Of a DNA stretch of 64,000 bases, positions 12,361-57,861 are shown piece by piece; position 1 is the first letter of the stretch; the number at the start of each line of letters is the position of its first letter. A program made the position numbers and the translations under genes. The stretch is from contig OX597817.1 of the NCBI GenBank assembly GCA_951406725.2, positions 73,036,001 to 73,100,000 of the forward strand. Reading direction: 5' to 3'. The notes beneath the pieces are model-generated. The model was given only the letters and a program-made list of their open reading frames with translations. It made no database searches and was not told the DNA's origin. The DNA is from Octopus vulgaris (taxonomy: Eukaryota).

Positions 12361-13054
12361 TTAAGACATAGGGACAGAGGCAATGTCAAGACACCATTTT
12401 CTAAGCTATAGTCAATTATATCAATCACAGTACTTAGTTTATTGACCTTACAAGGATGAAAGATGAAGTGAACCTAAGTGGGGTTTCCATTTTAGCATAA
12501 TGAGATGTAACCAAATAAGAAAATGGATTTTTTTCAGATGCCCTAACAACTCTGTCAGCCTTATTGATACTCATTGCAAAACTGACTGTAGAATATTCAA
12601 ATTAGTAAAGCACCATACTAAATATCTTACTGAATATTGTCTCTCTACACTCAAAGTTCACATAATGCTTATATTTACTTTGCTTTTCATCCTACTTAAA
12701 ACTTCCTTCTAATACACTTTAATAGTATTCATACTTAAACTCAAGTCATCATCAAAATTCCGTAACCTGACCTGATTGAAGTTGGTCAGTACTAGCATTA
12801 CATAGTTACAGATATTTAAACCCTTTCAAAAACTTGTTTATATTGTAAATTAATTGTAATGTACATGAAGTCTATTTGTTTGCTGTAATAGTCATGAAAG
12901 AGTTAAGTTTGCTCTGGGATTAATAAACTGCTAAGCTCCTCATCTCTCTTGGCTTTCTTGCCAACATAAGAGTGAAAAATTTATCTCAAAAGTATATTTT
13001 TAGATTATGTTGATGATGATGTTTTAAGGTAACAAAGATTACCTTAAAATACTT

Positions 13055-13246
13055 GAACACTTTAGAAAACTAATTACTTGCAATGTGTATGTGATCAATT
13101 GTGCATATATCAATATATATATATATATACATTTGGTTTCTTGTGATAATGAACACTTTAGAAAACTAATTACTTGCAATGTGTATGTGATCAATTGTGC
13201 ATATATCAATATATATATATATATACATTTGGTTTCTTGTGATAAT
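13055..13246 (+). repeat. Near-perfect 96-bp tandem duplication
   Basis: GAACACTTTAGAAAAC...TTGTGATAAT at 13055-13150 and 13151-13246. Confidence 0.95.
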
Positions 13247-14034: not shown

Positions 14035-14575
14035 ATTTTTCTAATTTTGGCACAAGGCCTGCAATTTTTAAGAGGAGGGTAAGTCAGTTACATCAATCCC
14101 AGTGTTCAAAACCCAATGCCTAAAAGGACTAAAGACAGAGTCCACTTGGGCTGCATTTTAGCTAAGAGCAGGGTAAGTCAATTACATCAATCCCAGTGCT
14201 CAAAACCCAATGCCTAAAAGGACTAAAGGCAAAGTCCACTTGGGCTGCATTTTAGCTTGGAATGCAAAATAGCTGGAAGAGAAGCTGCTAAGCATTATAC
14301 CCAACATGCTATCATTTCTGACAATTCACCATCATCTACTTCTAATAATGATAGTCCTTTTTACAATAGGCACAAGGCTTGAAATTTGGGGGCAGGGGTT
14401 AAGTCAATTACATCAACCCCAGTGCATAACTGGTACTTAATTTATCAACTCCCCCCCCTTCCCCAAGGACAAAAGGCAAAATTGACTTGACTGAGTCTTG
14501 AACTTATAATGTAATAGAGCTGGAAGAAACACTGCAAAGTATTTTTTATCCAACAGTAACAATTCTGCCAGTACA
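14035..14575 (-). mobile_element. Two old family-2 (Meta-domain-like) SINE copies, the first with a 94-bp internal tandem duplication (14069-14162 / 14163-14256)
   Basis: Reverse-complement match to the family seen at 42015 and 32673. The duplication is directly visible. Confidence 0.7.
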
Positions 14576-17238: not shown

Positions 17239-18487
17239 CAGACATGCAGGAAGTAAATAGACACCTTTAATTTTCAAAATTTCTGATCTAAGCGTCTTAA
17301 GCGGTGTAGAATTTATAATGTAATTATTCTTTTTCATTCCAGGTGCCATTATATTAAACATTTGCGAAGATTAACCATGCCACGCACAAAAAATTCAACA
17401 GAACTGCCAGATTTTCAAAGAGGTTGTATTGTTGAGCAATCTGAAGCTGGTCTTAGCCAGCGGAAAATTGCCGAAAATCTTCAAATTCCTCTTGCTACTG
17501 TTAATAGAATTATAGTGCAATTCAAAAGCCAAGGAAAAGAATCAGCAGATTCTCATCCCAGCCGACTTGGGCCTTCAGAAAGGAAGCTTCGCTGTTTGAA
17601 GAAAATTGTGGAAAACAAACCCCGTTCAAAGGCTTCTGACATTGCAAAACAGCTAGAAGTTAGTCCAAAAATGTGTGTTACATATCTGTATAAGCTTGGG
17701 TATTATGGACGAGCGGCTAGAAAACCTCTCCTTCAACCAATTAATATCATGAAAAGAAAGAAATGGACTAAGAAGATGTCAGAAAAATCCAGTTCATTTT
17801 GGGACAGTGATTTTCTCAGATGAATCCAGATTTGCATTATTTTTAGACAGTGGACATGTTTGGGTCTGGAGGCTTCCCAATCAAGAATTTGATTTGAAAT
17901 GACCCCAACCAACCGTGAAACATGGTATTTCTGTAATGCTATGGGAAGCTGTCACCAGCAATGGTCGTTCTGAGCTGATCGAATGTGTTGGAACCATAAA
18001 CTCTGAAAAATACATCGAAATACTTAAGCAAGGACTACTTCTAATGTATTCACACGATAACATAACGAAAAATGAGTTTATATCCATTGAAGATGGGGCT
18101 CCATGCCACACAGTGAAAAGGAATCAACAATGGCTGGCTGAAAATGGAATCAAAATGCTTCCTTGGTCGAGTAAATCTCCTGACATGAACCCACTTGAAA
18201 ATCTTTGGAGCATACTAGATAGAGTTATACGAAAAACTTGACAGAAACCTAAATTTAAAGATGAATTGTTTTGATTGTTGCGTGAAAAGTGGGCAGAAAT
18301 TCCACAAGAGACAATCACAAAGCTGACCAGTTCAATGCCAAAAAGAGTTTCTGAATTAAAAAAGGGAATGTCAACTAAATACCAAAGTATGTAGTCCTGC
18401 CTATTGATTACATTTCAGTCATTCACTTTGCATATTAAATAAAAGATTTCGAAAATTTAAGATGTCTATTTACTTCCTGCATGTCTG
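17239..18487 (+). mobile_element. Full-length Tc1-family (DD34E) DNA transposon, inactivated
   Basis: ~44-bp TIRs CAGACATGCAGGAAGTAAATAGACA.. / ..TGTCTATTTACTTCCTGCATGTCTG followed by TA. Transposase from ATG 17377 (ELPDFQRG, ARKPLL, VIFSDES after a frameshift, EDGAPCH, SPDMNPLENLW) with exactly 34 residues between the second D and E. Frameshift near 17810 and internal stops. Confidence 0.95.
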
Positions 18488-24048: not shown

Positions 24049-25572
24049 CCCTTTAGTATTCAGATTCATTTGTCAAATGTAATGCTTATCTGTTCACATT
24101 AATTTTGATTTATTCAGGTTCAAGAGGGGTGTCCACAATATTTGCTTGTAACTTTGTTAATTTTCTACATGCCAATTTGAAATTTTGTAAATGGGTGCTT
24201 ATATGGCAGTGGTTTATAATTACGTAATTTTAGCTGATCTTTCTGATTAAATGGGCAGGTAAAGTTAATTAACAGGTGTAAAAACAATCACATTAAGAAT
24301 AAACACTAAAATTCATATTCTTAATACGTCTACCTGTTTGATTTGTTATCAAAATTATCCAAGATGTCAACTGCCAACAATTTTACATTTTTCAAGATAC
24401 CATTGGCTTTGTACTTTTATACATTTAATAAATTCATTTATGTAACATAATGCATCTAATAAAACAAACATCATTAACAGGTGAGACAAAGGTGAATACA
24501 GGTGTGTAACATACTGAAAATTAATATATTTCTCACTTTCACATATTACAATAAAATGAAAAGGAATATATGATAAAAAATATAGTTGCAAAATAATATA
24601 GTTATGACATTTTTGTCATGAAAGCACTCTTTACACAAGGGCACGTAAAAGGAACATATATATGAAGTCTCAATATGATACCCTTTAGCAGTTTTTTGTT
24701 TGTTTTTTTTTTTTTGCAGCGAACACAGTCTGCAAACTTTTTTTCTTCCATTTATCTTTCCGACTTTATGAAAGTCAATATTTTCTCTGTTGACATCCAC
24801 CTTAGTTAATTATGCTTTTCTCCCAGTTCTGTACTTTCTAGAAGAAAAGCCCTCACGTACCTGAGATGTGATGTCAACCCAAATTTCAAATTGTCATAGT
24901 CCTTTGGTGGCAGAGGTACTTTGTAACTTTTTACATATACAACATATGAATTTACTCTAGTTAAATAACTAGAAACCACAAAATGTACCTCCACCATTTC
25001 TTCCCATGTTCACCAACTGGGTAATATGCCCGATATTGGTCAGATTTATCTACCCCACCCATATATTTGTTATAATAAATATTCACTAGAGGTTTCCCCT
25101 CAGCACCAACACCAGGTTGTTTATTAAAAGACAAATAAAATCTGTCTTTTATCTTTGAAAGCAGTAGCTAATAAATTTTCTTTCTGCATTTGTAAAATGT
25201 CCCCTCTTTTTTAATTTTCTTTTCACTTCACAGGGTAAACCTTTACGGTTTCCCGTACAGTACTGCACGTGTAAGTACTTATATGGGCAAGATTTTCTGT
25301 CAAAACCATGGAAGAAAAAAAAAAAAAAGGTCAAAATAAAGGTGTCGGTGCTGATGGTGAAATGGTTCAGTAAGAGACCACACTTACATCATGTCTTAAT
25401 CCATATAGTCTCCATTATATTTTCTACCTGTGTAAGCATCGAAGTTTACACAATATCCAGTGTCTGATTCACAAACATCCCATACCTTGATTCCCCATTT
25501 AGTAGGTTTGGCAGGCATGTACTACCGTAAATGTACTCTGCCCTTATAGCCTATCATGGCTTCATCTACACT
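24049..25572 (-). mobile_element. 5'-truncated piggyBac (PGBD4-like) transposon relic
   Basis: Minus strand reads VDEAMIGYKGR..YMPAKPTKWGIKVW..YTG, HLYFD, NRKGLP, YNKYMGGVDKSDQ..KKWWRY, then a C-terminal Cys-rich domain (CRLC..TSYICSF..PLCKECF). A candidate terminus TTAA-CCCTTTAG lies at 24045-56. Confidence 0.9.
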
Positions 25573-43988: not shown

Positions 43989-46269
43989 CACACACAATAT
44001 GTATGTGTGTGTACATATGTGAGGTATTATGCATGTGTATGATGTAGTCTCTCAACGTCCACACTTATATGCAGATATTAAAACAGAATTATAATTTCTT
44101 TTTCTCTAGATATGTTTTGCCAATTTATTAGAGATAAAAACAAATAGAACATAATAATCGACTACTTAATGTGATACATAATAGTAACATAGTTGTGTTT
44201 TTTAAGTTGTATAAAATATTTTTGCAACAAATCTAACAATAGGTTGTTTATAGTTTCGTTGCAAACTAAATAATATAAGAAATAGTGTGATGTCGATAAT
44301 GAATTGGTTTATATTTAGCCATATCAGCAGTGGTGATTCGTTGAAGAGAAATGGGCATGTAAGATGTTTTACCTCGTGTCGAGATCGCATCCCTATTTCG
44401 ATTCTAGCTTGAGGCAAGTTTAATTCACACTGGTCCCCGGGAAGCGTACGTACGTGATAGTGTCCTATTTACGCATGCTCCTTCTCAAAATGTATAAGGC
44501 CTTTGTGTGAAATCAAGAATCCTTTATTTTGATTTTGATGACTATTAAAGAACAAATTCACTAATCCTCTTTTTTTTTTTAACTTAGAATAATTAGAAAT
44601 TATTTTTAATCATACGATAGAGTTCAGCTGTAATAATGTAGAGCAAGTTAAACGATATAATCCAAGGAAGCTGGTTATTATTTATTAAGTAAAGAATTTT
44701 GTGTCCCGTTATAGTGAAAGTTCTGCGAGGAACAATTCAGTTGTTTAGTCACAATTTAAAGTTGAAGTTAGGAAAGCTAAGCATATACTTATTTACCTTC
44801 TGATGTTCAATATTTATTTTATTCATTAACTATAATTGATAAAACAATTAACTCATAGGTGGAAACTTGTCAGCAGAGCAAATCTCTGCTTCGAAATTTG
44901 TTTATTGTTAGATTATACTTTTTTTTTTTAATTAAAACAAAAAACGAGCAACAGAATAGGTAGATCGTAAAATGAGAAGCTGCGTGGTGTTTAGTTAAAA
45001 CTACTTTAATTACTGGATTCAAATTCCGTCGAGGCTGACTTGATGTCTCATTCTTCAAGGGCCGTTAAAATATAGCACCCGTCTAATACCGGAAGTGGAC
45101 CAATATAATCGATTATTCCCTGCCCACAGGAAAATGTAGTCTTATTTGATTAATATTGATTTCTAACGGTGACTTAAGTTATATTGGTGATGACTTTTAT
45201 CTCAAGTTGTCCTCTCTGAAACTTTTCCTGTTGCAGTTCAGGTTATTCCTGATCGAGCTGGCTTCTCAAAAGGCTTTCTAGCTAAGATCTTTCCATCTTT
45301 TATTCTAGATATAATAGTGTATCACCCTTCCTTCGAAATAGGGGACATACTCCACTGTCTACACCATTTTTTTTCCTCTAAAGATAGTCGGGTGGTTTTT
45401 GTGAGAGATTTGGCTGCTCTTTCTAGCCGGATGAACGATCATGTACAAGAAACTCTTTCATTGTTTTGAGTCAATACAACAAATATAATGAAGTTACGAG
45501 ACCAGTTTTAAATTGGTCCTTTTGAAAACGGAAGGGTAAAAAGAATCTGCAATGATGTTCTTGTATGTGTGAGAGTTATATTCCTTTTTCCATAATAAAT
45601 CTTCCTAAAATGGTGCAGGGCGTAGGGGATCATCGCATACCAATACGATCCATCTACAATGAGTGTGTGTGTGTGTAACCCTTTTTTTGTAGCAGCTGGC
45701 CTTGAGATATTTTGCTCATCTTAAATAGTGACTGAGCACAAAAAGAATATTTATTTACCACAGTATGTAGTACATAGCACAGTTACACTATTAGTATCTA
45801 CCCAGAACATAAACTAGATATTGTTACTAAATTTTAAAAAGTTCTTACAAATGTGACTATGCGTACCAACGAGATAAAGAGCCGCAGGGTTACTCATGCC
45901 GCATACATACACTCACACATATATACATAATTAGTAAATTTGTTTCAGATCAGCTTCAGTTTGATTTTTTTTTCTTAATAAATGTATAAAAATGTAAGAC
46001 TGTTATATTTCAGCCATAATAATTATAAGAAACATGTAGATAGCATACTAAGGTAGAATTGGACTCTTGTACATCGCATACCAAGCTAGCACCATATATA
46101 TGTGTGTGTGTGTGTATATATATATATATGTGTGTGTGTGTGTATATATATGTGTGTGTGTGTGTATAATCACATATAATAGCATATATACACACACACA
46201 TCATGGATGTGTGTGCGTATATATGCTATTATATGTGATTATGAGTGTGTGTGTGTGTAAATATATATG

Positions 46270-49381: not shown

Positions 49382-49391
<10 letters not shown>
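47417..49391 (-). mobile_element. Non-autonomous Helitron (~2 kb)
   Basis: On the minus strand: 5' T(C>T)TATATATAAAACTGAAATG, and at the 3' end a GC-rich hairpin (47430-48) 9 nt before the terminal CTAG, followed by T. No TSD, A|T target. Internal ~137-bp tandem repeat at 48055-48357. Confidence 0.7.
47485..47771 (+). mobile_element. RTE LINE 3' UTR fragment nested in the Helitron
   Basis: GGCAC..AAAAAGCACC repeats, GGCGTTAGGAAGGGCATCC and a GGACGTTAAACGATGATGAT end. Confidence 0.8.
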
Positions 49392-49419
<28 letters not shown>

Positions 49420-49460
49420 TAAGTAAAAAGGAAGAGTAAGTATGGTTAGGCAACTTTTTA

Positions 49461-49582
49461 ATCGCTACAAATGTTTCGATACATACAGATCCTTGTATAT
49501 ACAGGATTTAAAGTTAAGTTTAAATTAAATTAGGTAACGATTTACCTGTATAAGAAGAACTATATGTATCTCCTCGGGCGAT
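49461..49582 (-). ncRNA. Type I hammerhead ribozyme motif (U4>C variant)
   Basis: Minus strand reads: stem I ATCGC, core CCGAGGA, long stem II GATACATA..TATGTATC, GAAAC-ATTT-GUA, stem I' GCGAT. Confidence 0.65.
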
Positions 49583-49683
49583 ACTCAGTTGCTGTCTCCG
49601 TAAGTGAATCTAGATTTCCATGCTACAACATCCATGGATGTTTTAGCATGGAAATCTAGATTTACTTATGGAGACAACTGAGT

Positions 49684-49797
49684 ATCTCCTGCGGAGATAC
49701 ATATAGATCTTACACAGGTAAATCATTACTTAATTTCATTTAGACTTTAAATCTTGTATATTCAAGGATCTGTATGTATCGAAACATTTGCAGTGAT
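49684..49797 (+). ncRNA. Degenerate type I hammerhead ribozyme motif
   Basis: ATCTC-CTGCGGA-GATACATATAGATCTT..AGGATCTGTATGTATC-GAAAC-ATTT-GCA-GTGAT. Core A6 and the cleavage-site U are mutated. Confidence 0.5.
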
Positions 49798-49994
49798 TAA
49801 AAAGCTGCCTAACTGTACTTATTCTTCCTTTTGACTCTTTTACTTTTTACTTTCTATTTTACACGCGAGGAATACCTAAGACTACAATTGGTAGCATACT
49901 GTTAGAATAAGACCGGCTGTTTGGGAATTCTAAGGGTGAATGAGCTCTAACTGTACTCTAATACATTCTTAACAGAACACACCTCAACAGACTA

Positions 49995-50693
<699 letters not shown>

Positions 50694-56598: not shown

Positions 56599-57861
56599 TG
56601 AGGTCATCCCATAAATAATATGGCTTTTTCAATTGCATGAACTAAAAATCAGAGGGGGACACCTGTATCAACTTACTATAAAAGCAGGTGGTAATTTTAC
56701 CTTGTCCTTATTCTTAGTGCAAGTTTAAGAATGCAGTTCAATTTTAAGTTTTTTTTTTCAAAGCTATAATGGAAGTGACAAAGAAGCATATTTGACATAT
56801 TTGGTTTTATGAGTTCAATAAAGGCAACAACTCAATGGAAAATGCAAGGAATATTAATGCAGTATATGGGGATCAGACAATAAGCATAAGCCAGTGTCAG
56901 CAGTGGTTCCAGAAATTCCGAGCTGGAAACTTCAGCCTAGAAGACGTGCCTCATCCTGGAAGGTCTGTAGAGCTCAACGACGATGTCCTGCAAACCCTGG
57001 TGGAACAGAATTTCATCGTAACTGTTAAAGAACTAGCAGAGAAGTTTGGATTTGGTCAATCAACCATTCATCAACACCTGCATGCCATTGGAAAAGTTAG
57101 TAAATTGGGTCACTGAGTTCCTCACAAGCTTTCTGAGTCTAATTGTGCGAAGTGAGTGAATATGTGCTCTTCTTTGCTGTTGTGTCTCACAAATGAACCT
57201 TGTTTAGACCGAATGGTGACTGGTGACGAGAAATGGGTTCTCTATAAAAATGTCAAGCACCAAAGACAGTGGGTAGGGAAAGGAGAAACACTGGCACCCC
57301 AGGCTAAAGAAGGTCTTTACCCACATAAGGTGTTGTTATCTGTTTGAGATATGAAAGTCTTAGTTGACTTTGAATTTTTAAGTCCAAATCAAATGATAAC
57401 AAAGATCTGCTGTGAGCAGCTTGAACGGCTTAAGTCAGCGATAGAAGAAAAACGACCTTCTTTGGTTTTAAGACGAAAAGTGTTCTTCCATCAGGATAAT
57501 ACTCGGCCGAATGCAGCAAGGATGACATTTCATAACTGGAGCAGTTTGAATGGGAAATGATGTGCCACCCACCATATTCACCAGACATTGCCACATCTGA
57601 TTATAATTTATTCTGCAGTCTTCAAAATCATTTGGACGGAAAAAATATGAATTCTGTAGATGAGGTCAGAACAGTACTGGAGAAGTATTTTTCATCACGG
57701 ACCAGGGAATTTTGGAAGAGGGCCTTGCAAGTCTACTAGACAGAGGAAAGAGCATTGTAGAAAATGAAGGAGAGTATATTTTAGATTTTTAAAAAAACTA
57801 TCTTAATTTTTAAAAATAAAAGTAGTATAAAAAAAGATGTATTATTTATGGGATGACACAA
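56599..57861 (+). mobile_element. Full-length mariner (DD34D) transposon, inactivated
   Basis: TA-flanked TIRs ..GTCATCCCATAAATAAT / ATTATTTATGGGATGAC. Transposase from ATG 56769 with *VPHKL, VTGDEKW, HQDN and HPPYSPDIATSDYNLF, broken by stops and frameshifts. Confidence 0.95.

Follow-up and report, generated by a model that had tools for sequence, protein, structure and literature searches.

At 49422-49836 of the window (the whole 64,000-nt stretch of Octopus vulgaris DNA analyzed here) lies a palindrome with a hammerhead ribozyme-like motif in each arm. A first, sequence-only reading took it for the unit of a ribozyme-bearing retroelement family and for a locus at which self-cleavage competes with hairpin formation. 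The questions are what kind of insertion this palindrome is, whether its hammerheads are intact at this locus or in related copies, and which of its features is new.

Geometry of the fold-back insertion

The arms (left, 49422-49634; right, 49635-49836) meet at 49634/49635 with zero spacer, in agreement with the ~210-bp arms described by the sequence-only reading. Arm against arm, 180/201 aligned columns are identical, and the right arm has three gaps (3, 3, and 5 nt); a 12-bp perfect palindrome holds the center of the fold-back. The whole insert (49422-49988) measures 567 bp and is flanked by (TA)n tracts on both sides, also as described. Unique sequence had been thought to run to about 49995, whereas the ends of other copies place the family end at 49988. 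The features of the insert are as follows, with the evidence for each in parentheses.

49382-49421, no strand: (TA)n tract, left boundary and insertion target (TRF, period 2, 20 copies; sequence)
49422-49634, minus strand: left arm, an inverted copy of the end module without the tail (arm alignment; family letters)
49629-49640, no strand: fold-back center, 12-bp perfect palindrome (arm alignment; joints of other copies)
49635-49857, plus strand: right arm, the end module extending to the first of the two family 3' ends (arm alignment; contig loose ends)
49858-49988, plus strand: one-sided tail of 131 nt, running to the second family 3' end (contig loose ends; frame analysis)
49989-50035, no strand: (TA)n/(TG)n tract, right boundary (sequence; TRF)

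A fold-back of this kind could have been made during assembly, and no sequencing run contains at least half of the stretch's words (best share, 0.24). However, 21 sites and three gaps distinguish the arms, CpG decay at 49814/49815 has affected opposite strands, and an independent contig carries the right arm's private lesions and crosses the center by at least 10 nt (below the 31-nt bridging bar). The probability of an assembly artifact, which had already been called unlikely given the arm divergence, is thus negligible. Substitutions in the two arms number about 14 versus about 7, an asymmetry that is not significant (p = 0.19); the left arm is nearer to the family majority letters than the right arm. 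No additional copy of a palindrome arm was found in the 64-kb window by blastn.

The window itself is AT-rich, with many microsatellites and decayed Tc1/mariner remnants. Among the latter are a decayed Tc1-type transposase (17287-18238, plus strand; HTH and DDE_3 Pfam matches) and a decayed mariner transposase (56796-57344, plus strand; HTH_48 and Transposase_1); a DDE_Tnp_1_7 fragment (piggyBac/IS4-like transposase) lies at 24964-25167 on the minus strand. A stop-riddled minus-strand frame at 45050-45600 is presumably a decayed LTR-retrotransposon integrase. The plus-strand frame at 45194-45466, which has no homologue, is probably its antisense shadow; as a host exon giving the direction of transcription, this frame was dropped, having no homologue and an integrase-like minus strand. 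Tandem duplications occur at 13054-13246 (96 bp, 100% identical) and 14069-14257 (94 bp, 94%); the 96-bp duplication may be of very recent date or reflect an assembly slip.

Hammerhead motifs in the arms and in the dispersed family

Each arm carries one motif, and the two have different lesions.

49461-49582, minus strand: type I hammerhead motif, left copy, with the U4C lesion (motif mapping, folding, descriptor scans)
49684-49797, plus strand: type I hammerhead motif, right copy, with the A6C and U16.1C lesions (motif mapping, family letters, folding)

Read on the minus strand, the left motif has a stem I with 5/5 pairs (49582-49578 with 49465-49461), the core CCGAGGA (49577-49571), a stem II spanning 49570 to 49478, and GAAAC-ATTT-GTA (49477-49466). 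Within the latter, GAAA occupies 49477-49474 and the quasi-palindromic stem III 49474-49467; the predicted cut, 49466|49465, is the position proposed by the sequence-only reading. The right motif, on the plus strand, has 4/5 pairs in stem I (49684-49688 with 49793-49797), the core CTGCGGA (49689-49695), and GCA in place of GUA at 49790-49792, with the cut-equivalent at 49792|49793. Three small deletions lie within or near it. The core therefore bears one lesion in the left copy (U4C) and two in the right (A6C and U16.1C).

The hammerhead layout is beyond chance expectation. A relaxed descriptor matched the window at the two arm motifs only, and in 1,346 block-shuffled windows it gave 126 matches with at most one lesion and 323 with at most two. 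A strict descriptor, fitted to the left arm after the fact, gave 3 matches in 3,860 shuffled windows, which, together with the mapped motif pieces, bears out the claim that each arm has a type I layout. Folding was stronger than in shuffled sequence for the left motif (z = -4.42; 0/200 shuffles as good) and for the right (z = -2.75; 3/200). The left arm alone forms stem II with a probability of 0.999, and its hammerhead-compatible fold lies 2.6 kcal/mol above the minimum.

The covariance-model search that had been proposed as a check returned no hammerhead family among 105 Rfam matches at E <= 10, nor at the gathering score; Rfam matched the window only with sub-threshold miRNA hairpins, on microsatellites and on the palindrome center. 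This result is expected if the long stem II arm exceeds the hammerhead models. The exact motif also had no match in the viral contigs, prokaryote genomes, or metagenomes scanned. Three metagenome loci matching a gapped core pattern were rejected as chance matches, lacking stems I and II by eye.

Related copies are abundant in public sequencing runs. Of 24 rows listed in a run search, 20 cover the stretch in part (best share, 0.24; 11 studies), and none of the runs listed is on record as RNA. Four runs with four organism labels were aligned to the right arm plus tail (49625-49990). In the DNA-type runs X1, X3, and X7, 368, 407, and 380 contigs aligned, of which 275, 339, and 296, respectively, have <95% identity. 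The ratio of peak summed depth to median single-contig depth (median over seven listed low-depth contigs per run) is ~440, 350, and 500; because contig depth is no copy number, we keep the estimate at some hundreds. The stretch thus belongs to a dispersed family of some hundreds of copies, the number being rough.

The family majority letters form an intact type I hammerhead core (CUGAGGA, GAAA, and GUA). Position 49692 is A in 691.6/691.6, 1221.6/1239.2, and 1390.1/1419.8 of depth (X1, X3, and X7), which gives the core CUGAGGA, and 49791 is T in 2061/2125, 3495/3814, and 8356/8495 (97%, 92%, and 98%), which gives GUA. Accordingly, C3-U4-G5-A6-N7-G8-A9, G12-A13-A14, A15.1-U16.1, and H17 are all present in the family majority, and among the best 40 of 57 variant rows, the sole minor core variant falls on the free position N7 (49693; 2%, 6%, and 19%). 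The sequence-only reading had held that the consensus of the two arms is a canonical ribozyme; at the level of core letters this is exact, with cleavage predicted.

Among the same best 40 of 57 rows, the variable sites of stem I are the pairing partners 49687 (A in 4%, 21%, and 33% in X1, X3, and X7) and 49794 (C in 54%, 54%, and 53%, otherwise T). All variants at the two sites fit G-C, G-U, or A-U pairs, but they are unphased and lie on CpG sites; the majority G at 49687 is taken from the loose-end consensus (14 contigs in X1 and 10 in X3) and the left arm. No stem II covariation was found among these rows. Lesioned cores are not confined to the 49422-49988 locus, since contig loose ends with CUGGGGA (X3) and CCGAGGA (X7, 4 contigs) occur in other copies, with thin support. 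The contigs, which cannot show RNA ends, have no depth step or cluster of ends at the cut site.

A sister family was also seen: ten contigs each in X1 and X3 match the last 77 nt of the tail (49912-49988), and their loose ends upstream of 49912 are diverged but clearly related, with a 3-nt gap. As a source of covariation, it would be the most promising.

Family ends and the origin of the insertion

Other copies enter (TA)n at two fixed points. Among the best 20 of 248 loose ends, they do so directly behind 49857 in at least 8 contigs of X3 and at least 16 of X7, and directly behind 49988 in at least 15 contigs of X3 and at least 12 of X7. The left arm stops near the first of these family 3' ends, while the right arm extends 131 nt further to the second.

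Strand switches account for 11 of the best 15 of 31 joints in other copies, at varied positions; inversions are therefore common in the family yet mostly asymmetric, and the palindrome at 49422-49836 is the only symmetric copy known. On the other side of the module, 49632-49634 is a recurring 5' boundary, forming one side in 4 of the best 15 of 31 joints (partners 49747, 49876, 49915, and 49928). One contig of X14, a run whose RNA status is a guess, reads on upstream of 49632 with 15 other letters, which are all the family sequence recovered upstream of the module. There are no head-to-tail joints among the best 15 of 31 and no tandem copy of the module in the window.

One plus-strand frame of the tail carries two stops in the window copy but is free of them in the family majority; stops persist in the other five frames. 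A stop-free frame is expected by chance at about 0.065 per frame. The stop-free majority frame fits the start of a coding region, so that the family may not be noncoding, as the sequence-only reading had it. There is no sign of selection in the window copy of this frame, as it has 2 synonymous and 7 nonsynonymous substitutions. The tail peptide, read through with X, has no word-sharing homologue candidate, and two phmmer matches to it were repeat proteins, rejected as spurious.

With its fixed ends on (TA)n and the inverted joints in other copies, the insert at 49422-49988 most likely derives from a Penelope-like element (PLE) family that targets (TA)n: it would be a dead insertion of that family's terminal (pLTR) module, truncated and joined to a fold-back copy of itself. 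We consider this reading probable. The earlier idea of a microsatellite-associated ribozyme retroelement family survives in that the family is multicopy, tied to (TA)n, canonical in its core, and provided with Penelope-type end marks. Its palindromic unit does not survive, given that the inverted joints of other copies fall at many different places. Linkage to a Penelope RT or GIY-YIG domain, also proposed as a check, was not seen in 150/156 non-repetitive window ORFs of >=62 aa. This absence is expected for a truncated copy; because no such gene is linked, we infer PLE membership from anatomy.

Marks described for PLEs are an adjacent inverted 5'-truncated copy, a one-sided tail, and a (TA)n bias in Neptune, Hydra, and Naiad (PMC8557442). 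The present insert resembles insertions of EN+ PLEs (PMC8557442, PMC11167929) in several respects: a second copy lies inverted and head to head, the tail is one-sided, the 3' end falls at either of two fixed points, TA tracts are targeted with no TSD to be seen, the end module holds a hammerhead, and the template was apparently copied through an intact cut site. It differs in the length of the tail (131 nt versus a published 30 to 40 bp [Craig et al. 2021, PMC8557442; Frangieh et al. 2024, PMC11167929]), in that both arms begin at the same base, and in that the module is known without a linked RT/GIY-YIG frame. In Anolis Poseidon, the tail is the stretch between two internal RT start sites, at the beginning of the ORF; the main template there is uncleaved RNA, and the hammerhead cuts only with protein (PMC11167929). 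Opposite-strand hammerhead pairs 100 to 700 bp apart were noted earlier (Cervera and De la Pena 2014, PMC4209133). By analogy, the palindrome would be an already described by-product, ordinary for PLEs. Published octopus Naiad 3' ends (PMC8557442 supplement, in part) appear unrelated to the module by eye, and short family motifs and peptides have no match in the Craig et al. supplement, in which line breaks can hide DNA matches.

An origin from a smaller element is rather unlikely but deserves the most weight among the alternatives. The family would then be a ~365-nt non-autonomous element with fixed ends at 49632-49988, retrozyme-like and using a PLE protein in trans, and the palindrome a one-off fold-back. 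It amounts to the family proposed by the sequence-only reading, minus its palindromic unit. The recurrence of 49632-49634 in 4 of the best 15 of 31 joints speaks for it, and depth over the 5' part (49638-49663) is about a quarter to half of the peak. Animal retrozymes, moreover, are pLTR derivatives and are found as monomers (bioRxiv 10.64898/2026.07.22.740005), and the animal non-LTR retrozymes (PMC7229834; bioRxiv 10.64898/2026.07.22.740005) likewise combine a type I hammerhead with a low-GC noncoding unit of 300 to 400 nt that is probably pLTR derived. These retrozymes, however, are defined by head-to-tail tandems and circular RNAs, whereas head-to-tail joints number 0 among the best 15 of 31 here. 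One contig extends upstream of the boundary with other sequence, and the majority stop-free tail frame and the diverged, tail-sharing sister family fit a larger coding parent. A MITE or DNA foldback element with long terminal inverted repeats, on which the hammerhead words arose by chance, is far less probable still: the long inverted repeat, the TA context, and the lack of an Rfam match agree with it, but the strict descriptor is as rare in shuffles as reported above, the family majority core is exact, the unit is asymmetric with its one-sided tail, and inversion points vary in other copies. The family contigs largely refute it.

A functional locus, at which the sense ribozyme and the antisense arm compete or the dsRNA has been exapted as an ADAR or Dicer substrate, is very improbable, if slightly less so than a MITE. 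For the full palindrome the folding energy is about -266 kcal/mol, and the inter-arm duplex in a read-through transcript of either strand is predicted at -267 or -252 kcal/mol, so that, by folding, such a transcript would indeed be the 200-bp dsRNA hairpin foreseen in the sequence-only reading. The competition foreseen with it does not hold up. Both ribozymes are lesioned in the core and the inter-arm duplex excludes stem II (probability in the palindrome, <1e-40); there is thus no cleavage-versus-hairpin switch. The 10% arm divergence with three gaps is, furthermore, as under neutral decay. In favor of function, one contig of X14 (RNA status a guess) fits 49625-49766 apart from two A-to-G differences. 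At one of these sites, 49725, the letter is that of the left arm and is common among family copies in DNA, so that the difference can be allelic; since one difference is a family allele and the RNA status is a guess, the two were not counted as editing. The same contig weakly supports the palindrome junction as real.

For the PLE terminal module with its fold-back copy, which we prefer, the following course of events is proposed. The element's GIY-YIG endonuclease would nick a TA tract, reverse transcription would begin at the outer end (49988), internal to the RNA, and an uncleaved template would be copied through the ribozyme to 49632-49634. The self-complementary cDNA end might then prime back on itself or on a second cDNA. 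Copying that reaches the inner end (~49857 equivalent) would yield a palindrome that lacks any spacer and is tailed on one side, both arms of which would decay neutrally. Given its recurrence as a joint, 49632-49634 may mark the RNA 5' end rather than a random truncation; short cDNAs would then stem from a 5' copy of the initiation site.

The long stem II arm and a candidate intron

The sequence-only reading called stem II unusually long, and it is: the core boxes are separated by 93 nt in the left copy and 85 nt in the right, and the outer stem II, with family letters, has 17/17 uninterrupted pairs. Two of these are G-U pairs, which would be mismatches on the opposite strand. Inside the outer stem lie a further 8-bp helix and then ~35 AT-rich nt; the ~50-nt AT-rich insert described earlier is thus AT-rich as stated but partly paired. 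The helices of the family motif are a 5-bp stem I, a 17-bp stem II, and a 2- to 3-bp stem III, with stem I open. By comparison, helix II of PLE hammerheads has 4 bp in the canonical form and 6 to 8 bp in the minimal form, usually with a bulged base after A9 (PMC4209133). The octopus motif is like the metazoan PLE hammerheads of that source in its type I order, its 5-bp stem I, G10.1-C11.1, its very short quasi-palindromic stem III suiting dimers, and the presence of opposite-strand pairs nearby. Unlike them, it has 17 bp plus 8 bp plus ~35 nt in this arm and no bulged base after A9.

Judged by sequence, what is new is the 93-nt arm that separates the core boxes of an otherwise standard predicted hammerhead and that Rfam misses. 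No such long-arm motif was found in the excerpts of the literature searched (including PMC7229834, PMC3088659, PMC13282606, PMC6962438, and PMC10085705), the scope of which did not extend to Lunse et al. 2017, Repbase, and Dfam. Surveys can undercount PLE hammerheads because short stem II spacers were used; the search of Craig et al. used a 7- to 17-nt spacer and described 35- to 50-nt "half cores" in eight Naiads (PMC8557442).

We note that, by eye, every piece of a hammerhead is present in the 3' "half core" ends of Naiad_Obim and Naiad_Ovul (PMC8557442 supplement), in an order that is not circular. GUA is followed by a hexamer complementary to the hexamer before CUGAUGA, with GAAA and the stem III partner in between. 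Their stem II appears weak, and they could be non-circularly permuted hammerheads.

In the parent element, the motif would most likely be a weak self-cleaver, assisted by dimerization or protein as in other PLE hammerheads. The long stem II may lock the fold and probably replaces the usual contact between loops I and II. The stem III octamer could pair with a second copy through 6 pairs around two U-U mismatches, and a dimer-type stem III is known in PLE hammerheads (PMC4209133; PMC6765202).

Two further sequence features raise the possibility that a spliceosomal intron straddles the hammerhead.

49715-49723, plus strand: splice-donor-like 9-mer in the stem II extension, candidate (sequence)
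49816-49869, plus strand: pyrimidine-rich, AG-free tract, candidate acceptor with weak GAG context (sequence)

The donor would be at 49717|49718 and the acceptor at 49869 or, within stem II, at 49766, so that splicing would take out the cut site or shorten stem II, and the balance of splicing and cleavage would set the fate of the RNA. Donor-like 9-mers occur 34 times in 128,000 window positions, that is, once per 3.8 kb by chance. The tract at 49816-49860 is 84% C/T, and a 64-nt AG-free stretch precedes the AG at 49868-49869. There is precedent, in that PLE pLTRs contain 5'-UTR introns and, in D. virilis, the intron end alters the hammerhead (PMC4209133; PMC8557442). Against an intron, both candidate acceptors are GAG or AAG rather than YAG, both contigs of the possibly RNA run X14 are unspliced across the donor, and no matching skip occurs among the best 15 of 31 joints. 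Given the non-YAG acceptors and the unspliced X14 contigs, we regard the intron as doubtful, although it is compatible with the PLE pLTR module explanation. It is similarly a long shot that the family's hammerhead is active and belongs to a hidden long-arm class, overlooked by Rfam and by descriptors in print, whose ~90-nt stem II extension contains a splice donor; splicing would then remove or reshape the ribozyme, and unspliced RNA would be cleaved or serve as template. If this were true and common, hammerheads may be present even in PLE clades from which they are said to be missing (the half-core Naiads), and the retention of PLE introns would be tied to ribozyme function in a way testable in one 370-nt RNA.

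The long arm itself bears on what PLE hammerheads do and on whether some clades truly lack one, a matter of modest importance. The arm is, in addition, a natural test case for the replacement of the loop-loop contact by a long, stable stem II.
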